Source: an uncultured delta proteobacterium
GTDB lineage: Bacteria; Myxococcota; Myxococcia; Myxococcales; Myxococcaceae
Length of the DNA stretch: 64,000 bases
Assembly (NCBI GenBank): GCA_963776345.1
Contig: CAVZMH010000002.1
Location: 32,001-96,000, forward strand
Direction: 5' to 3'
The translations under genes were made by a program, and so were the position numbers. Shown here one piece after another: positions 24,246 through 39,547 of this stretch. The notes below the pieces were generated by a model. The model had not been told where the DNA came from. It did no database searches and worked only from the letters and a program-made list of their open reading frames with translations. The number at the start of each line of letters is the position of its first letter. Position 1 is the first letter of the stretch.

Positions 24246-25499
24246 CTACTCGGTGCGCATGGCCTCGACGGGGTCCAGCCGCGCCGCCCGGGCCGCCGGG
24301 TAGATGCCGAACAGGAGCCCCACGCCAGAGCTCATCACCAGCGCGAGCATCACCGCCCAGGTCGGGACGGAGGTGGGAAAGCTGAACGCCCAGCGGGCGA
24401 GGAAGGCCACCAGGCCGCCTCCCAGCACGCCCAGCACCCCCCCCACCAGCGAGAGCATGATCGCCTCGGTCGCAAACTGGCCGAGGATGCGGTGCCGCCG
24501 CGCCCCGAGCGCCTTCCGGACCCCGATCTCCTGGGTCCGCTCGGTGACCGAGACCAGCATGATGTTGAGGATGCCGATCCCGCCCACGATGAGCGACAGG
24601 AGGCACACCCCGAAGCTCGCCGCGGTCACCACCGAGGAGATCTGGTTGAAGGCCTGGGTGGCCGACTCGTTGGAGAAGATGAAGAAGTCGTCCTCCTGCT
24701 CGGGCTTGAGGTTGTGGCGCCGGCGCATGAGCTGCCGCACCTCCTCCATCGCCCGGGGCAGGAGCTCGGTCGAGACCGCCTGCATGCTGATGTTCAGCGA
24801 CCGGTTCTTCCCCCACAGCTGGAAGAAGGCGTTGACCGGGATCACCACCACGTCGTCCTGCTGGAAGCCGCCGACGAAGGCTCCCTTGCGCTTGATGAGG
24901 CCGATGACCCGGAAGGGTCGGGTGCGGATCCGGACCTCCTGACCGATGGGATCCACCTGGGGGAAGAGCACCTCGGCCACGTTCGACCCGAGCACGACCA
25001 GGCGCTCTCCGTCGGCGACCTCCTTCACGTTGAAGGAGCGCCCGGAGGCGATGTCCATGGCGTTGGTGAGGAAGAAGTCGGCGGTGCCGCCGGCGATCTG
25101 GATGTTGGGCCGCGTCTCGTAGCGGTCGGTGGAGACCTTCACCCCGAAGTCCCAGGCCTCGCCGGTGGTGGCGATGACGTCCGGGAGCCGGCGCTCGATG
25201 TCGTCCCGGTCCTCGATGGTGAGGTTGGGCCTCTTCGAGAGGCGATCGAAGTCGAAGTTACCGAAACCATTGGGGAACTTCTGGATCTGGAACCCGTTGG
25301 ACCCGAGGCCGGTCAGGTCCTCGTCGACCTTGTTCCGCAGCCCCTCGAGCAGGGCCATCATCGAGACCACGGTGGCCGCCCCGATGACGATGCCCAGCAA
25401 GGTCAGCAGCGAGCGGAGCCGGTGTCCCCAGAACGTGGAGAACGCCAGCCGGAAGTTGTCGATCAGCGCGCGCACCCACAGTGCCTGACGGCCCGTCAT
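24246..25499 (-). CDS. ABC transporter permease, MacB/FtsX family
   Basis: LRSLLTLLGIVIG, GGIGILNIMLVSVTERTQEIGVRKALGA and PAARAARLDPVEAMR motifs. Alternative start at 25508. Confidence 0.93.
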   Translation of the reverse strand: MTGRQALWVRALIDNFRLAFSTFWGHRLRSLLTLLGIVIGAATVVSMMALLEGLRNKVDEDLTGLGSNGFQIQKFPNGFGNFDFDRLSKRPNLTIEDRDDIERRLPDVIATTGEAWDFGVKVSTDRYETRPNIQIAGGTADFFLTNAMDIASGRSFNVKEVADGERLVVLGSNVAEVLFPQVDPIGQEVRIRTRPFRVIGLIKRKGAFVGGFQQDDVVVIPVNAFFQLWGKNRSLNISMQAVSTELLPRAMEEVRQLMRRRHNLKPEQEDDFFIFSNESATQAFNQISSVVTAASFGVCLLSLIVGGIGILNIMLVSVTERTQEIGVRKALGARRHRILGQFATEAIMLSLVGGVLGVLGGGLVAFLARWAFSFPTSVPTWAVMLALVMSSGVGLLFGIYPAARAARLDPVEAMRTE

Positions 25500-25567
25500 G
25501 TCCCCCATTGCAGCAGATCCCTGCACCGGGCGCGCGGCTGGCCGGGCGGGAGAGCCCGGAGGGCGCC

Positions 25568-26566
25568 CTACCTCCCGAAGGCGAGCGAGGCGCTGGTCCT
25601 CTCGGCCGGCACCCAGCGCTGCAGCGGATAGCCCTCGGACACCCACGCGGCGTAGCCGCCCTCCAGGGGCCGGACCCGGTCGATGCCTCGTCGCTTCAGC
25701 CGGAGCGCCACCCGGGCGCTCGTCCACTCATCGGGTCAACTGCAGAAGAGGACCACCGGGCGGCTGCGGGCAATCTCCCCGTGCCGCCGGTCCAGCTCGT
25801 CCGGCGAGATGTGGAGCGCACCCGGCAGCGTGCTGCCCGACTCCTCCAGCTCGCGCCGGTGCCGCAGGTCCACCAGCACCAGGTCCTCGCCCCCGTCGAG
25901 CAGCCGCTTCAGCTCGACGGGCGACAGCCGCGCCACCCGGAGCGCGGTCCGGAAGCGCAACCGCTGGAGGAACTTCCACCCGAGGTACAGGGCGAACCCC
26001 GCGGCGAGGACGCCCGCCGCCGAGCCCGCGTAGGCCATCGCCAGCTCGAGCGCGCGGAAGAACGGGCCACCCGCGAGCCAGCCCAGGCCCACGAACGTCG
26101 TCGCCCAGAAGAAGTCCCCCATCGCGTCCAGCCCCAGGAAGCGCCGGAGCCGCATCCCCGACATCCCGGCCAGCGGCGGCGCGAGGGTGGTCAGCCCCGG
26201 GATGAAGGGGGCGATCACCAGCGCCCGCGCGCCGTAGCGGGTGAACGCGTTCTCGGTCCGCTGCACGCAGCTGTCGGGCTCGAGCGAGACGCGGCAGATC
26301 AGCCGCAGCACGCGGTTGCCCCAGCGACGGCCGGCGAGGAACCAGGCCGAGTGCCCCAGCGACGCCGCCACCGTGGCGAGGACGATCGGCACCGCGAGCG
26401 TCCCCTGACCGAGCCGCGCCAGGGCCCCCGAGGCGATGAGCCAGGGCGTGCACGGGATGGGCACCCCGCCCTGCTCGAGGAGCACGCTCGCGAAGACCAG
26501 CAGCGGTCCGTACGTCTGGAGGAACTCGATGCTGGCGTTCACGGCGGGTGGAACCTCCGGCGGCAC
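25568..26566 (-). CDS. DedA (VTT/SNARE-associated)-rhodanese fusion, predicted selenoprotein (C-S-U)
   Basis: N-terminal DedA domain (EQGGVPIP, FIPG). The rhodanese domain reads through TGA 25738-25736: PVVLFCS-U-PDEWTSARVALRLKRRGIDRVRPLEGGYAAW, ending at TAG 25570-25568. Confidence 0.88.
25703..25721 (-). promoter_or_regulatory. Putative bacterial SECIS hairpin of the DedA-rhodanese gene
   Basis: Perfect 7-bp stem GAGCGCC [CGGGT] GGCGCTC. The stem begins 14 nt and the loop 21 nt after the UGA. Confidence 0.7.
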
Positions 26567-26665
26567 CCGCGGGCGGGTGCAGAGCGGCGTGTGTAGCCGG
26601 ACCGGCGCCCCACCGCCACCGTGTCACCCTCGGGGGGTGGCCGTTGCAGACCGCCCGCGTCGGGG

Positions 26666-26893
26666 CTAGTTGGGGCGGGCCGACGGAGGCTGCCCGATCA
26701 GGTGGACCACCTCGTCCACCCGGACCGGCAGCTTTCCGCCCTTCCGCTCCAGGGCGAGCGAGAGCTTCCGGTGGTCGGACCGCGTCAGCCGCCGGTCGAG
26801 CACCACGTCCACCATGTACTCGAGCGAGTCGACGCCGAGCACCATCCCCACGCTGAACAGCATCAGCTCATCCGGGTCCACGTAGGCCGACAT
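26666..26893 (-). CDS. Small hypothetical protein
   Basis: 75 aa (MSAYVDPDELMLFSVG...), typical codon usage, fills an intergenic gap. Confidence 0.6.
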   Translation of the reverse strand: MSAYVDPDELMLFSVGMVLGVDSLEYMVDVVLDRRLTRSDHRKLSLALERKGGKLPVRVDEVVHLIGQPPSARPN

Positions 26894-26980
26894 GGCACCT
26901 GGAAGCCTTTGCAAGGAAGGATCCGACGGGACGCCGCCCCGGGAAGCGGGGGGCGGCCAGACCTGTTAGGGGTCCCAACC

Positions 26981-29116
26981 GTGCTTCCTGGCTTGCTCCT
27001 TTCCGTGCTCGTGGCCGCTGGCCCGGCACCCTCTCCGACCGCGAGCGGGGCCGTCCACGAGGGCAAGCCGAGGGTGCATGCGACCCTGGTCTCCGAGCTG
27101 ACCCAGGTGGAGCCGGGCGGCGCGTTCCGGCTCGGGGTGCAGCTCCGGATGGCGCCCGGGTGGTACGTCTACTGGAAGAATCCGGGCGAGGCGGGACTCC
27201 CGAGCGAGGTGGTCTGGGACGCGCCCCGCGTCACGGTGGGGCCACTCACCTGGCCTGCGCCGGAGGTGCACCGGAGCCCCGACGGCACCATCACCAGCTA
27301 CGGCTATGGCGGGGAGGTGGTGCTCTTCGCCACCGCCCGCGCGCAGCCCGAGGTGCAGCCGCCGCTGACGGTGGTGGCCACCGCCGAGGTGCTGGTCTGC
27401 CAGGTGCAGTGCATCCCGGCCCGCTTCGAGCTCACCCGCGTGCTCGGGGTCGGTCCCCGGCAGGCCGATGCGGCGGGCGCGGCGCTCCTCGAGGCCGCGG
27501 CGGCTCGCGTGCCCCGCCCCCCGGCCGCCGCGGGGCTGCGGGTGGCCATCCGGCGGACCACCGCCTTCGTGCCCGGCCAGCCGTTCGAGGGCGAGCTGAC
27601 GGTGGAGCGCGCCGACGGAAGCCCCGAGCCGCTCGCCGACGCCGACGCCTTCGTCCCGGAGCGGCTCCCCGGAGTCGTCTCGGTCACGGGCATCGCCGAG
27701 GGGCCCGGCCGGCTCCGGCTGTGGGGGAAGGCCGCCGCCGACGCGCCGGCCCCGCCGTCGCGGATGGCCGGGGTGGTCACCCTCGCCGGCGGCGGCGCCA
27801 TCGAGGTGAGCGGGCCGTTCGAGCTCCCGCCCGGCCTCGCTCCCCGGCCCGCCGCCGCGACGCCGCCGGTCGCGGCGCGGACGCCGGGGTTGCCGTGGGT
27901 GCTGCTGCTCGCCTTCCTCGGCGGCGTGCTCCTCAACGCCATGCCCTGCGTCTTCCCGGTGCTGGCGCTGAAGGCGTACGGGTTCGCGCGCACCGTCCAA
28001 GCCGACCACGGCTCGGTGCGAAGGCACGCGCTGGCGTACACCGGAGGAATCCTCGCCTCGCTGCTGGTCCTCGCCGTGGCGGTGCTGGGCCTCCGCGCCG
28101 CGGGCCACGCCGTCGGCTGGGGCTTTCAGTTCCAGGAGCCGCTCTTCGTCGCCGTCCTCTCCGGGGTGGTGCTCCTGTTCGCCCTCAACCTGCTCGGGGT
28201 GTTCGAGCTCACGCCGCCGAGCCACGGCACCGGGTCTCTGGTGGCGGCGGTGGATCACTCCCACGGCCCGCTCCGGAGCGCGGGCGAGGGCGTGCTCGCG
28301 GTGGTGCTCGCCACGCCCTGCTCCGCGCCGCTGCTCGGGACGGCGGTGGGCTTCGCCTTCGCGGCCAGCGCGCCGGTGGTCCTCGCCGTCTTCGCCGCGG
28401 TGGGCCTCGGCCTCGCCGCGCCCTTCTGCGCGCTGGTGCTGGTGCCGGGGCTCCGGACCCGGCTGCCGCGGCCGGGCGCATGGATGGAGCGCGGCAAGCA
28501 GCTCCTCGGCTTCGCGCTGCTCGGCACCGGGGTGTGGCTCGCGGGCATCCTCGGGGCGCTCGCCGGGGTGGACGGGGTGGTGCGGCTGCTCGCCTTCCTG
28601 GTGGTGGTCGCGCTCGCCGCCTGGGCCTGGGGCGCGTGGCGCCGCGGGCCGGTGCTCGCCGCGGGGCTGGCCCTGGTGCTGGTGACCGGCTTCCTGGCGC
28701 TGCGCTTCGGCGCGGGGCCGGCGTCGGCGGTCGGGCGCGAGGCCTGGAGCGACGAGGCCGTGGCCAGGAGCCTCGCCCAGGGCCGGCCGGTGCTGGTCGA
28801 CTTCACCGCGGAGTGGTGCCTGAGCTGCAAGTTCAACGAGCGCACCGTGCTCGCCTCCGAGCCGGTGCGGTCGGCGCTGGCCCGCACCCGGACCCAGCTG
28901 CTGGTGGCCGACTGGACGCGCCGCGACGCCGGCATCGCCCGCCGTCTTGCCGCGCACGGGCGGGCCGGCGTCCCGATGTACCTGGTCTACTCGCCGGCGC
29001 ACCCCGACCAGCCCGAGGTGCTGCCCGAGCTCCTCACCGTGGACCTGGTGGTCTCCGCGCTGGAGCGGGCCTCAACCGGACAGGGCGCGCTCGGGCTCTC
29101 CTCGTCCCCGAGGTGA
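26981..29116 (+). CDS. dsbD: Thiol:disulfide interchange protein, DsbD family
   Basis: N-domain YWKNPGEAG and CQVQC; TM domain MPCVFP and TPCSAP; thioredoxin domain DFTAEWCLSC. Confidence 0.9.
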   Translation: MLPGLLLSVLVAAGPAPSPTASGAVHEGKPRVHATLVSELTQVEPGGAFRLGVQLRMAPGWYVYWKNPGEAGLPSEVVWDAPRVTVGPLTWPAPEVHRSPDGTITSYGYGGEVVLFATARAQPEVQPPLTVVATAEVLVCQVQCIPARFELTRVLGVGPRQADAAGAALLEAAAARVPRPPAAAGLRVAIRRTTAFVPGQPFEGELTVERADGSPEPLADADAFVPERLPGVVSVTGIAEGPGRLRLWGKAAADAPAPPSRMAGVVTLAGGGAIEVSGPFELPPGLAPRPAAATPPVAARTPGLPWVLLLAFLGGVLLNAMPCVFPVLALKAYGFARTVQADHGSVRRHALAYTGGILASLLVLAVAVLGLRAAGHAVGWGFQFQEPLFVAVLSGVVLLFALNLLGVFELTPPSHGTGSLVAAVDHSHGPLRSAGEGVLAVVLATPCSAPLLGTAVGFAFAASAPVVLAVFAAVGLGLAAPFCALVLVPGLRTRLPRPGAWMERGKQLLGFALLGTGVWLAGILGALAGVDGVVRLLAFLVVVALAAWAWGAWRRGPVLAAGLALVLVTGFLALRFGAGPASAVGREAWSDEAVARSLAQGRPVLVDFTAEWCLSCKFNERTVLASEPVRSALARTRTQLLVADWTRRDAGIARRLAAHGRAGVPMYLVYSPAHPDQPEVLPELLTVDLVVSALERASTGQGALGLSSSPR

Positions 29117-34030: not shown

Positions 34031-34843
34031 CTAGAGCCCGGCGATCCCCGGCTCGAGGCGCACGTAGCCGCGCTCGATGGCCCAGAGGTCGAGCGACAGC
34101 GAGCGGAGCTCGTCCACCTCCGGCACCGCCCGCGCGTCCAGGCTCAGGTCCACCGACTTCACGTAGCGGTGGCAGGTCTCGCAGGCCTCCACCCGCGCCG
34201 CCGGGTGCGTCTCGCTCTGCCATCCCGGGAGCCGCTCGGGGTCCGTCTCTCCGCAGCTCGGGCAGCGGATGCGGTTGGTCTGCCACTCGGTCCCGCACAG
34301 GCCGCAGCCGAGGAAGCGCGTGGCGCCGTCGGACCCGGGCATCTCGCGGCGGAAGGCGATGCTCGGCGGAGCGCCGCACGCCGGGCACCTCCCGCTGCCC
34401 GGCTCGCGGGGGCGATCCAGCTCGACGCCGGCGTGCACCGCCGCCTCGGCGTAGGCCCGGAGCACGGCGTGCGAGAGGAAGTCCTGCCGCTCCTCGGGAC
34501 CTCCGCCCCAGGCGGCGCGCAGGCGCGCGGCGAAGAGGTCCGCCGGCTCGGCGACACGGGCTCCCGCCGAGTCCCGGAGCGCCACCGGCCCCGAGTTGGC
34601 GAGGAAGCGGAGCACCGAACGCAGCGGCGCCTCGACCCGCGGGAGGTCCCGGTCGAGCGTGCCGCTCAGCGGCGCCCGGCCGTGGGCCTCGAGCACTCCG
34701 GCGGCGGCGCGCGCTTGCGCCCGGAACAGCCCGGCGGCGAAGCGCAGCGGCTCCCGGCCGGACGAGGGGGACTCCGCCAGCGCCTCCGCGCGCGCGGCCC
34801 GTCCCTCGAAGCGTGCGCCGAGCTGCTCAGCGCTTGGTGCCAC
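34031..34843 (-). CDS. fdhE: Formate dehydrogenase accessory protein FdhE
   Basis: CPACG, CGLC.TEW, RIRCPSCG and CETCHRYVK motifs; last gene of the fdn operon. Confidence 0.93.
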   Translation of the reverse strand: MAPSAEQLGARFEGRAARAEALAESPSSGREPLRFAAGLFRAQARAAAGVLEAHGRAPLSGTLDRDLPRVEAPLRSVLRFLANSGPVALRDSAGARVAEPADLFAARLRAAWGGGPEERQDFLSHAVLRAYAEAAVHAGVELDRPREPGSGRCPACGAPPSIAFRREMPGSDGATRFLGCGLCGTEWQTNRIRCPSCGETDPERLPGWQSETHPAARVEACETCHRYVKSVDLSLDARAVPEVDELRSLSLDLWAIERGYVRLEPGIAGL

Positions 34844-35528
34844 TCGTCACGTCGCGGTACCAGGCGGGGTGGTGCAGGCGCGCCCAGGCCTTGGTCACCG
34901 TCCCCTTCACCATGGCGGAGTACGTCCCCGGCTCGGCGATGGCCAGGTAGATGTGGCCGAAGATCATCAGCATGAAGAGGATGAACGTCACGTCGTGGAC
35001 CACCCACGAGGTCTCGCGGAGTGCCGCGGACGGGAACAAGTCCGGCCACCAGAGGATGACACCGGTGGCGAGCAGCCCGAGCGAGGCCAGGCTGCTCAGC
35101 CAGAAGAGCATCTTCTGGCCGCCGTTGAACTTTCCGACCTCCTCGTCGTGCGTCTCCCAGCGCAGGTAGGCCCCGAAGCTCGAGGTGAAGCGCTTGTCGG
35201 CCGCGGTCATCTTCATCGCCCCTGCCCAGTGCACGAACTGGAGCAGCGCGAAGACCGCGAAGGCGACTCCGCTCCACGGGTGGAGCCAGCGGCAGACTTG
35301 CAGCCCGCCGAACAGCGGGGCCAGCCAGCCGAAGATGGGCGTCCAGATGGGGAGCCCGGTGAAGAGGCAGAGGAAGAAGAACAGCGCCACCCCCCAGTGC
35401 ACCACCCGGGTGTAGTAGCGGAAGCGGACCAGCTCGTCGCCGACGACCAGGTCCTCCTGCGCCTGGGCGAGGAGGATGCCCGGATCGGCGCTGGAGTGGG
35501 CGGGGACGGCGCGCAGCGGCTCGGCCAT
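34827..35528 (-). CDS. fdnI: Formate dehydrogenase gamma subunit (cytochrome b556)
   Basis: RVVHW, WLHPWSG, GKFNGGQK, His ligands and WARLHHPAW. Confidence 0.93.
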   Translation of the reverse strand: MAEPLRAVPAHSSADPGILLAQAQEDLVVGDELVRFRYYTRVVHWGVALFFFLCLFTGLPIWTPIFGWLAPLFGGLQVCRWLHPWSGVAFAVFALLQFVHWAGAMKMTAADKRFTSSFGAYLRWETHDEEVGKFNGGQKMLFWLSSLASLGLLATGVILWWPDLFPSAALRETSWVVHDVTFILFMLMIFGHIYLAIAEPGTYSAMVKGTVTKAWARLHHPAWYRDVTSGTKR

Positions 35529-35546
35529 GACGTGTCTCCTCGCTCT

Positions 35547-36428
35547 TCAGGCCGCGGGTGGAGTGGAGGACGGCGGGCCCTTGGGTGGCTCCCGGGGTCC
35601 GAAGCGGAGGTAGTGACCGACCAGGCCCACGATCACTGCGCCCATTCCCAGCAGCCCCAGTGGCCTCAGGTAGCTCTTCACGAACCGGACGGAGCCGGGC
35701 ACGGTCGGGTCGCGCGGCAGCCCGTAGAGCTCGGGCTTGTCGGCGTGCTTGAGAACGGTGACCACACCCGTTCCGCCCACGCCGGGTGGATCGTACACCC
35801 CGGCGTTGGCGTAGCCGTCGGCCTTGAGCTGCTTCACCCGCTCGTTTCCGAGCGCGAGCATGTCCTCCTTGGTGCCGAAGTGGAGGCACCCGGTGGGACA
35901 CGCCTTGATGCACGCCGGCTCGAGGCCCACCTGGGTCCGGTCCACGCAGAGCGTGCACTTGGACATCTTCCCGGTCTTCTCCGAGAAGCGCGGCACGTCG
36001 AACGGGCAACCGGTGCGGCACAGCTGGCACCCGATGCACAGGTCCGGATTCACGTCCACCGTGCCGTTGGAGTACTGGACGATGGCGCCGGGCGCGGGGC
36101 ACGCCTTGAGGCAGCCCGGATCGAGGCAGTGCATGCACTGATCCTTGCGCATCAGCCAGGCGAAGCTGCCGTCCACCTCCGCCTCGTGGAACTTGATGAG
36201 GTTCCAGAAGTCGGCGGTCATCGTGGGCAGCGTCTGGTAGCTGCCGTCCTGCACCGTCTTCGCGTTCGGCAGGTCGTTCCACTCCTGGCAGGCGACCTCG
36301 CAGGCCTTGCAGCCGATGCAGGTCGAGGTGTCGATCAGCTTGCTGACGACCGGCACCTTGCGCACGCCGGAGCCGGTGCCCCGGAGCGACGCGGAAGACA
36401 TCATCACCTCGAGACCAGGGATCGCCAT
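35547..36428 (-). CDS. fdnH: Formate dehydrogenase beta (iron-sulfur) subunit
   Basis: Four 4Fe-4S motifs (CIGCKAC, CMHC..PGC, CIGCQLC, KCTLC) and a C-terminal TM anchor. Confidence 0.95.
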   Translation of the reverse strand: MAIPGLEVMMSSASLRGTGSGVRKVPVVSKLIDTSTCIGCKACEVACQEWNDLPNAKTVQDGSYQTLPTMTADFWNLIKFHEAEVDGSFAWLMRKDQCMHCLDPGCLKACPAPGAIVQYSNGTVDVNPDLCIGCQLCRTGCPFDVPRFSEKTGKMSKCTLCVDRTQVGLEPACIKACPTGCLHFGTKEDMLALGNERVKQLKADGYANAGVYDPPGVGGTGVVTVLKHADKPELYGLPRDPTVPGSVRFVKSYLRPLGLLGMGAVIVGLVGHYLRFGPREPPKGPPSSTPPAA

Positions 36429-36430
36429 GG

Positions 36431-39400
36431 TCAGGCCCTCCCCACCTTCTCGAGCTTCACCTGGAACGCCTTGAACTCCGGTGTCCAGGTGTTCGGATCG
36501 ATGGCCGACGAGGTCAGGATGTTGGCCAGCGGCCCGGCGTGCTTGGCGTCACCGCTGTAGCCCCAGTGGATCGGGAAGCCGATCTGCCAGACCCGCTTGC
36601 CATCGAGCATGAAGGACGGCATGCGCTTGGTCACCATCGCCGGCCCCTCGATCGACCCGCGCGCCGACGAGATGCGCACCGTCTCCCCGTTCTGGATGCC
36701 CTTCTCCTTGGCCAGGTCCTCGGGGATCTCGAAGAAGATGCCGGGCTGCACCTCGTTGAGCCGTCCCCCCACCTGGTTCTTGGTCCAGTAGTGGAAGTGC
36801 TCGGTCAGCCGATAGGTGGTGCAGACGATGGGGAACTCGTCCGCCTTGCCCCACTTGTCCTTGTCGCTGTTGAAGCGCTTGAGGACGGGGCTCGCGGAGA
36901 CCTTGGGGTGGAGCACGTTGTCCACCGGCGCCTCCACCGGCTCGTAGTGCTCGGGGAACGGACCGTCGTTCAGCACCGGCGAGAAGAGCCGGCCCACGCC
37001 CTCGGGGAGCATGATGAAGGCGCCGAACGTCCCGGGCGGCGCGTCCGGCTTCATGTCCGGGACGTCACCCACCCACTTCTCGCCGTTCCACTGGATGCCC
37101 ACGCGCTTGGGATCCCAGGGCTTGCCCGCCGCGTCGGCGGAGGCGCGGTTGTACATGACGCGCCGGTTGGCCGGCCAGCTGAAGGCCCACTGGTGGAACT
37201 GTCCAAGCCCCATCGGATCGGTGGTGAGCCGGCGCGCGGAGTTGTTCCCGCCCTCGGTGAACACCCCGGTGTAGAGCCAGTTCCCGCAGGAGGTGCTGCC
37301 GTCGTCCTTGAGCTGGCCGAAGCTGTCCAGCTGCAGCCCGGCGGCCTTGAGGACCTTCGGCGGGTCCTTGGACTTCGGGTCCTTGGGCGGCTCGACCAGA
37401 TCGGTGATCGCCTTGCCGTTGATCTCCTTCAGCACCTCGGCGAGGTCGGGATTGGCCGGGTTGGTGTACGGCCAGGAGATGTTGAGCACCGCCTCGGGCA
37501 GCGCGCCCGGCTCCTTGCGGTACAGGTCCTTCAGCGCCAGCAGGAGGCGGCTGATGATCTCCTGATCGCTCTTCGACTGGCCGGGGCCGTCCACCGCCTT
37601 CCACTTCCACTGCACCCAGCGCGCGGAGTTGGTGAAGGTGCCGTCCTTCTCCGCGAAGTTGGTGGCGGGAAGCAGGTAGACCTCGGTGGGGATCTTCGAG
37701 GCGTCCGCGCCCCCGAGCTCCTTCGGCGCCTTCCAGAACGCCGCGGTCTCGTTCTCCTGGTTCTCCACCATCACCAGCCACTTCAGCTTGGAGAGGGCGG
37801 CGACCATCTTCAGCGAATTGGGACCTGTCCCGACCGGGTTCATGCCAAAGGAGATGAGGCCCTCGGGGGCCGGCTCCTCGCCCCCGGCGCGCTTCGAGTT
37901 CCCCCGGTACATGTCGTCGAACATGTAGCCCCAGGAGTAGTTGCCGTCGACCTTGGGCAGCCAGGCGTAGCCGAACTCGTTCTCCTTGGTGGCCGTCTTG
38001 CCCCAGACCGTCTTGAGCAGCGAGACCATGAACTTGGGGTAGTTGGTCCAGTAGTTCATCGACGCCCAGGCCATCTTGTTCAGCGTCCAGGGCGTGCTCT
38101 TCTCGAGGTAGGTGGCGAGGTCCGGCAGGTTGGAGCTGGGCGTCTTGAGGTAGCCGGGCAGGATGTCGAACGTCCCGCCCATGTCGGTGGCGCCCTGGAT
38201 GTTGGAGTGCCCGCGCAGCGCGTTGACCCCGCCGCCCGGCCGGCCCACGTTGCCCAGCAGCAGCTGGAGCATCGCGGCGGTGCGGATGATCTGCACCCCG
38301 ATCGAGTGCTGGGTCCACCCCAGCGCGTAGAGGATGGTGCCGACCTTCTCCGCGTTCCCGGTGGAGGTGACCATCTCCGCCACCTTGAGGAACTGCGCCT
38401 TCGGCGTCCCGCAGATCCGCTCCACCATCTCGGGCGTGTAGCGGTCGACGTGCTTCTTCAACAACTGGAAGACGCAGCGGGGGTTCTCCAGCGTCGGGTC
38501 CACTCCGTAGGCGCTGGTCTTCTCGTCCGCCTGGTAGCCCCACGCCGTCTTGTCGTACTCGGCCTTCTTTTCGTCGAAGCCGCTGAACAGGCCGTCCTGG
38601 AAGCCGTACTTCTCACCGACGATGAACTGGGCGTTGGTGTGCAGCTTGACGTAGTCGGCGTGGTAGCGCTTCGTCTCCAGGGCGTAGCGGATGATGCCGT
38701 TGAGGAAGGCGATGTCCGTGCCGGCGCGGAGGGGCGCGTAGAGGTCCGCCACCGCCGCCGTTCGCTGGAAGCGCGGATCCACCGACACGATCTTCGCCCC
38801 GCGCGTCTTCTTCGCCTCGATGGCCCACTTGAACCCGCACGGATGGTTCTCGGCAGGGTTACCGCCCATCACGAACACGACGTCCGCGTTCTTGATGTCC
38901 ACCCAGCCATTGGTCATCGCACCGCGACCGAACGTGGCGGCCAAACTGGCCACCGTTGGACCGTGTCATACTCGTGCTTGTGTATCTCGGTAGACGATGC
39001 CGAGGCCGGCGCCGAACTTGTACTGCAGCATGTTGAATTCGTTGGTGTCGGTGCAGCCGCCGATGAGCCCGATGCCCGGAGTGCGGTTCACCACCGCGCC
39101 CGCGGCGTTCTTGGCGACGAAGGTCCGGTCGCGCGTCTCCTTGATGTGCTTGGCGATGCCGGCGATCGCCGCGTCCCAGGTGATCTCCTCCCACCGGTCC
39201 GAGCCGGCCCGCCGCACCTTGGGGACGCCCAGCCGCCCGGGATGATGGATGTCGTTCTTGAGGCTGATGCCCTTGGGGCACAGCGTGCCGCGGTTGATCG
39301 GGTGGTCGGGGTCGCCCTCGATGTGCACCACCGAGCCGTGGACGTTCTTCGCCTTGTCCCCCAGCGTGTGGATGATCACCCCGCACGAGACCGAGCAGTA

Positions 39401-39547
39401 CGGACAGGTGCTGCGCGTCTCGGTGGTCCGGGAGATCTTCAGCTCGCGCATCTCCGCGCGCGCCTCGGAAAGATCGAAGAACCCCAGCCCCAGCGCTCCA
39501 CCGGCAGCGGCCGTCCCCTTGAGGAACGTGCGGCGGTCCACGTGCAT
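36431..39547 (-). CDS. fdnG: Formate dehydrogenase-N/O alpha subunit, selenocysteine-containing, Tat-exported
   Basis: Tat signal DRRTFLK, CPYCSVSC..C, and QARV-U-HGPTVASL with TGA at 38968-38966 joining the two track ORFs into 1038 aa; ALRGHSNIQG. Confidence 0.96.
38936..38954 (-). promoter_or_regulatory. SECIS hairpin of fdnG
   Basis: GGTGGCCA [GTT] TGGCCGCC begins 11 nt after the UGA, the spacing of the E. coli fdh SECIS. Confidence 0.85.

Follow-up and report, generated by a model that had tools for sequence, protein, structure and literature searches.

A DedA membrane protein fused to a C-x-U rhodanese domain is a predicted selenoprotein in Myxococcaceae

On the minus strand of a 64,000-nucleotide stretch of DNA from an uncultured delta proteobacterium (hereafter the window), we identified a gene whose product is predicted to be a 324-residue selenoprotein. 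In the reading that we favor, whose chances we put at about even, a DedA domain holds a C-x-U rhodanese domain at the predicted cytoplasmic face and the protein is likely a membrane-bound thiol/selenol redox enzyme. The decoding step can be stated more firmly: the in-frame codon TGA 25738-25736 is almost certainly read as selenocysteine (Sec), SelB being expected to read the hairpin behind it and to insert Sec, because TGA alternates at this position with Cys codons only, the hairpin is tied to TGA and fits the bacterial SECIS model, and the host encodes the Sec machinery. Such a protein would extend the bacterial selenoproteome by an integral-membrane architecture. The features of the locus are collected in Table 1; residue numbers follow the 332-amino-acid form (P0001), which is the product if GTG 26566 is used as start instead of GTG 26542.

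Table 1. Features of the DedA-rhodanese locus (positions in the window)
Feature	Positions	Strand	Basis
Full DedA-rhodanese gene, predicted selenoprotein, 324 aa	25568..26542	-	likely start GTG 26542; Pfam; homolog lengths
DedA/VTT core PF09335, residues 37-163	26078..26458	-	Pfam E 7e-15; model
C91-x8-C100 pair (CRVSLEPDSC), loop predicted cytoplasmic	26267..26296	-	conservation, charge bias
Rhodanese domain PF00581, residues 215-310, split by TGA in table-11 annotation	25637..25924	-	Pfam, model, fold matches
C275 (TGC), canonical rhodanese catalytic position	25742..25744	-	GlpE alignment; follows strand 271-274 in model
In-frame TGA, likely selenocysteine U277, second position of C-x-U	25736..25738	-	codon comparison
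Likely bacterial SECIS, 7-bp stem, loop CGGGU, loop begins 21 nt after UGA	25703..25721	-	conservation, bSECIS criteria
MacB/FtsX-type ABC permease, neighbor, probably outside the system	24246..25499	-	synteny in two genera only

The minus-strand frame 26566-25568 contains a single internal stop, TGA 25738-25736, within ...PVVLFCS*PDEWTSARVAL..., beyond which 55 sense codons lead to the terminal TAG. The original prediction, that the frame stays open past the TGA and completes a rhodanese fold, was borne out: the read-through part extends the match to positions 1-101 of the 102 of the rhodanese profile, and Pfam places both the VTT/DedA and the complete rhodanese domain in one read-through frame above their cut-offs (56 and 42 bits versus 33.9 and 22.2). 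Third-position GC is 0.97 before the TGA and 0.93 after it. Translation probably starts at GTG 26542 rather than at GTG 26566, since a stop at the UGA then gives a 268-amino-acid product, which matches most close database records in length; GGAGG lies 11 nt upstream of GTG 26542 and homologs start with MN.SIEFL. The structure predicted from a 62-row alignment, with C replacing U, has a mean pLDDT of 90.7 and a pTM of 0.71. Close relatives are labeled Myxococcaceae. Of the 24 listed runs, 4 gave DNA contigs that span the TGA codon, and none of the matches listed differs from it at this codon. The codon is also spanned, at about 97% identity, by a 244-nt contig from an RNA library, which is no proof of transcription.

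The comparison of homologs is the main argument for Sec. In 113 related loci, 33 from genomes (the source genome included) and 80 from metagenomes, the codon at the U277 column is TGA (68 loci), TGC (37) or TGT (8) and nothing else, which yields the Cys/TGA pairs that the original prediction had proposed to look for. Nine loci (L047-L055) were left out of these counts as apparent duplicates, and the metagenome loci are the best 80 of 592 confirmed stretches found in 5 of 64 parts scanned, with about 8000 estimated overall; the DedA-rhodanese selenoprotein appears to be common in soil bacteria. Among 60 related genomes, 15 encode a full-length relative, always with TGA at the U277 column; across the phylum, 29 of 400 genomes do so, 26 with TGA and 3 with TGC. 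At the protein level, 79 of 120 homologs end exactly at residue 276, 39 continue past it with Cys and the remaining 2 show neither pattern; residue 277 is Cys in all 39 homologs spanning that column, in agreement with the proposed position of the UGA at the second Cys of a CxC motif. Among representatives at 50% identity, 39 of 150 likewise stop at residue 276, and the NCBI and JGI records among the homologs carry plain VTT/DedA protein names. That so many of the closest proteins, and of the representatives, end just before the TGA exposes a systematic annotation error.

C91, C100, C275, P278 and E280 are invariant in all 113 loci. A quick tree built without the hairpin columns calls for at least four Sec/Cys switches, three of them forced by well-supported branches, and the hairpin motif tracks TGA at each switch, related loci not being independent of one another. 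Since the Sec/Cys exchange recurs there, the +2 loop residue (U277) is marked as chemically active. On the same tree, the TGA-bearing locus L115 branches within Cys forms; its hairpin is kept via a G-U pair, and it may represent a Cys-to-Sec gain.

The perfect 7-bp hairpin reported to follow the UGA is indeed present, with arms GAGCGCC (25721-25715) and GGCGCTC (25709-25703) around the loop CGGGT. Its stability by itself is not above that of shuffled sequences (z from -0.77 to +0.81 in four windows of this roughly 72% GC DNA) and was dropped as evidence for Sec; the hairpin rises above chance because it is conserved only in TGA homologs. The 15-nt core AGCGCC-CGKGY-GGCG is found in 68/68 TGA loci and in 0/45 Cys loci, including none of the six Cys loci that code for the identical peptide, all of which use other codons. 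At the TGA loci, Ser283 is always encoded by AGC, Ala284 always by GCC, Arg285 only by CGG or CGT and Ala287 always by GCG. The core occurs five times in the source genome, and behind a TGA only at the DedA-rhodanese gene. As given in the legend of Fig. 2 of PMC13188914, a bSECIS has a loop of 3-9 nt, a stem of 4-16 bp, a G in the first two loop positions, a distance of 16-37 nt from the UGA and an energy of -7.5 kcal/mol or lower. Scored against these values with a custom script rather than with bSECISearch, the hairpin studied here (loop CGGGU, 7 bp, 21 nt, -13.2 kcal/mol) falls within all of them, as do 67 of the 68 TGA loci versus 14 of the 45 Cys loci.

These results bear directly on the reading of the TGA as a genuine stop codon, as a sequencing error or as a site of Cys or Trp insertion, with the 268-amino-acid form as the product. 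Every annotated record seen, NCBI's included, ends there and the hairpin alone is not unusually stable; yet TGA sits at the same column in 68 loci with a conserved open frame beyond it, the codon choice of the hairpin is frozen only in the TGA forms, and a product ending at the TGA loses the helix at the active site. We regard this explanation as scarcely credible.

The source genome encodes selA, selB, selD and a tRNA-Sec (selC), all scoring above curated cut-offs, which excludes a host devoid of Sec machinery. Co-occurrence with this machinery, another check that the original prediction had suggested, held in that selA is found in all 29 TGA genomes tested (28 above the cut-off), but it discriminates little, because the gene is widespread across the phylum (291 of 401 genomes, a tally that takes in one unpublished genome) and three Cys-form genomes also carry selA and selB. 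Co-occurrence of selA was therefore rejected as strong proof of Sec; the presence of the gene is necessary rather than telling. The Cys-form loci L065, L071 and L072, all from one genus whose sister species carry the TGA form, are those that coexist with selA and selB; on the tree, the proteins they encode cluster separately from the remaining Myxococcota copies, which may reflect a separate acquisition. The selD gene of the source genome (contig C20, 109736-110665) has an in-frame TGA of its own (CAG*AAK) with a downstream hairpin. An operon for formate dehydrogenase (alpha, Fe-S, cytochrome b, FdhE) lies at 34031-39545 on the minus strand; its alpha subunit, 10 kb from the DedA-rhodanese gene and a known selenoprotein type, has an in-frame TGA at 38968-38966 (ARV*HGPT) and a downstream hairpin.

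Residues 211-318 of the model have matches among rhodaneses of known structure (best Z 17.3, rmsd 1.4, 100 aligned). Escherichia coli GlpE has the same fold (1gn0, Z 14.3, rmsd 2.5, 107 aligned) and the same position of the catalytic Cys, but lacks two residues of the loop and the Sec/Cys at +2. Its active-site Cys aligns with C275 and not with U277, in an alignment whose gap could be placed otherwise, the exact position of the two extra loop residues being ambiguous. Because the catalytic Cys of GlpE aligns with C275, Sec is likely a second reactive residue, placed two positions after the canonical catalytic Cys and beside an intact C275. For the same reason, the Sec-dependent sulfur/selenium transferase put forward in the original prediction is not implied, the canonical catalytic residue being the first Cys.

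The C-x-U rhodanese is a catalogued selenoprotein type, predicted by bioinformatics and described in passages of PMC13188914 (form 3) and PMC9312934 (COG0607 form 2). The closest described family is NF041203 (rhodanese_LYCAU), the best NCBIfam match of our protein, with which it shares the fold and the C-x-U loop after the last active-site strand that this family calls for (LFCSU here, LYCAU there; LFCSUPDEWTSA compared with LYCAUP[NS]E[AY]TSA in the listed examples). It would resemble that type in its working, but at 77.6 bits, under the cut-off of 115, it does not belong to NF041203 by NCBI's test, and three related DedA-rhodanese fusions score 76.6-85.3 bits. The architecture differs as well: the NF041203 model spans 126 positions, and the three examples listed from the deep-Sep supplement are stand-alone proteins of about 130-150 amino acids whose N-termini look like signal peptides by eye, whereas here the rhodanese domain, predicted to be cytoplasmic, follows the DedA membrane domain in a fusion of 324-332 amino acids. 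Stand-alone rhodaneses with YCT-TGA also exist in relatives (L033, L037, L041, L045) and share the 15-nt hairpin core of the fusion; the two that were scanned reach 82-95 bits on NF041203, under its cut-off, and therefore proteins of this kind may also be missed in annotation.

Cys-type DedA-rhodanese fusions (PF09335 + PF00581) are known, and their role is called unclear in the sections of PMC9881974 and PMC12893004 that deal with them. They have the same architecture with a C-x-C-P-x-E loop, as in Pseudomonas aeruginosa PA1209 (311 aa); our protein is 43-51% identical to Cys forms in an alignment of which PA1209 is not part. Unlike in these fusions, the second Cys is replaced by TGA with a SECIS-like hairpin, and in this clade Pro replaces Lys at the column of YghB R130. 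DedA is absent from the main texts of PMC13188914, PMC9312934, PMC13326102 and PMC12013277 and, among the BSepDB entries listed, from the supplements of PMC13326102 and PMC12013277; of the publications on DedA and rhodanese among the matches listed, none is on selenoproteins as judged by title or start of abstract. The C-x-U rhodanese type is already known, and its membrane-bound DedA fusion with Sec was not found in the papers searched.

The DedA part carries the other conserved thiols. C91 and C100 are absent from E. coli YghB in the alignment, and are invariant in 62/62 and in 113/113 loci, C91 having been part of one metagenome search pattern; in representatives found without that pattern, the pair is kept in 39/39 truncated and 89/98 full-length proteins. 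Loops face the cytoplasm when rich in Lys and Arg (positive-inside rule). Loops 79-112 and 198-215 are Lys/Arg-rich, consistent with such a topology, and the C91/C100 loop and the rhodanese linker are therefore predicted to be cytoplasmic, which makes it quite probable that the rhodanese domain and the C91/C100 pair share the cytoplasmic side. No DedA structure appeared among the PDB sequence matches or the top 50 fold matches.

The original prediction also considered a DedA flippase. With the COG0586 flippases YghB and UptA of E. coli the protein shares the DedA core and one of the four YghB residues (E39, D51, R130, R136) tied to undecaprenyl-phosphate flipping in the relevant part of PMC9881974: E39 is kept as E31, and E occupies this column in 96 of 113 loci. 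The other three are not kept, D51 falling in a T40/P41 region without acidic residue and R130 and R136 being replaced by the non-basic P120 and T126; differences from these flippases further include the added C91/C100 and the fused enzyme domain. Since its DedA part is without D51, R130 and R136, a standard undecaprenyl-phosphate flippase is unlikely. The particular proposal that the C-x-U domain exerts redox control over a standard COG0586 flippase has in its favor that passages of PMC9881974 place DedA-rhodanese fusions in COG0586, that weak UptA matches exist (35 bits versus cut-offs of 250 and 300) and that Lys stands at the R130 column in 80/113 loci; but Pro does so in 30/68 TGA loci, this one included, and in 0/45 Cys loci, T/P occupy the D51 position, Arg or Lys is found at the R136 column in only 4/113 loci (T here), and the source genome has a separate stand-alone DedA, all of which makes this proposal very improbable. 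Conservation of the C91/C100 pair instead argues for redox chemistry over lipid-carrier flipping, which gives a handle on the role of DedA-rhodanese fusions; that this near-invariant pair denotes a membrane redox enzyme seems to us plausible, if somewhat short of an even chance.

In the mechanism that we propose, C275 would accept, at the membrane, a sulfane sulfur or selenium species or a similar electrophile. The residue at +2, U277, would resolve the C275 adduct as a selenenyl-sulfide, and C91/C100 or cellular thioredoxin would re-reduce the C275/U277 site. The DedA part would act as an anchor and as a route to a membrane-borne substrate, not as an undecaprenyl-phosphate flippase. Taken as one mechanism, uptake by C275, resolution by U277 and reset by C91/C100 or thioredoxin is a tentative scheme, a little less probable than its opposite. 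A stricter version is a self-contained membrane relay passing electrons between the DedA Cys pair and the rhodanese Cys-x-Sec, in which a selenol switch would drive or gate the passage of a substrate linked to sulfur, selenium or lipid through the fold of the DedA domain; we regard it as distinctly unlikely. If true, it would make the protein a selenium-dependent DedA whose task is not to recycle lipid carriers, and it would account for what the widespread DedA-rhodanese fusions do. Of 98 full-length representatives, 82 keep both C91/C100 and C-x-C, 8 lose only the former, 7 only the latter and 1 both (Fisher p 0.55); as the two pairs are not lost together, obligatory coupling was rejected, and the result argues against an obligatory relay between C91/C100 and the C-x-U site.

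The same selenoprotein could instead be a plain sulfur/selenium transferase, in which a persulfide carrier is coupled to the transport of selenite, thiosulfate or related species by the DedA part. The rhodanese fold with its catalytic Cys, the conservation of YghB E39 as E31 (96/113 loci) and the selenite uptake linked to a DedA protein of Cupriavidus metallidurans, as cited in PMC8679861, speak for such a carrier, which we nonetheless judge to be rather unlikely, given the two-residue loop insertion relative to GlpE, the location of Sec off the catalytic position, the C91/C100 pair left unexplained and the lack of any selenium or sulfur-trafficking gene among the 18 neighbor-cluster representatives scanned. 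That scan returned no ars, mer or chr gene either, which weighs against a role of the four Cys/Sec residues in sensing or export through the binding or reduction of soft metals or metalloids (arsenic, antimony, mercury, chromate). The predicted location of four conserved chalcogen ligands on the same side, the fold relationship to the As-Sb reductase 2j6p (Z 12.0, rmsd 2.2, 104 aligned) and a weak ChrE match (38 bits versus a cut-off of 120) are compatible with that role, but the 2j6p match is no better than those to many other rhodaneses, and we consider such a role improbable. The membrane thiol/selenol enzyme remains our preferred reading.

No gene neighborhood is conserved across the family (113 loci). 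A MacB-type permease does lie downstream, as the original prediction stated, with a gap to its ATG (25499) of 68 nt instead of about 60. This gap contains no terminator-like site, a promoter scan found nothing, and co-transcription of the two genes is possible from their arrangement. The permease follows the DedA-rhodanese gene in 17/113 loci, all from two genera (g1 and g50), many loci having short flanks; we therefore interpret it as local synteny and reject it as a family partner. No ABC ATPase was seen among the window ORFs scanned. An alternative start at GTG 25727, which would extend the MacB frame (24246-25727, minus strand) over the read-through part, was rejected because MacB homology begins at residue 10 or later of the 417-amino-acid form and because it is the rhodanese frame that is conserved; this GTG is a trap for gene callers.

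Beside distant homologs, genes for a short-chain dehydrogenase (13 loci), a nitroreductase (10), a pirin (9), YceI (8) and an FAD oxidoreductase (8) recur, as do MarR and MFS genes, which weakly suggests a loose redox-stress context. Upstream of the gene, on the opposite strand, a DsbD-like thiol:disulfide interchange gene (26621-29116, plus strand, with its real start probably near 27000) is common to genus g1 only and was rejected as a redox partner. Directly upstream and on the same strand, a 75-amino-acid ORF (26666-26893, minus strand) without Pfam match lies in a region conserved within the genus.
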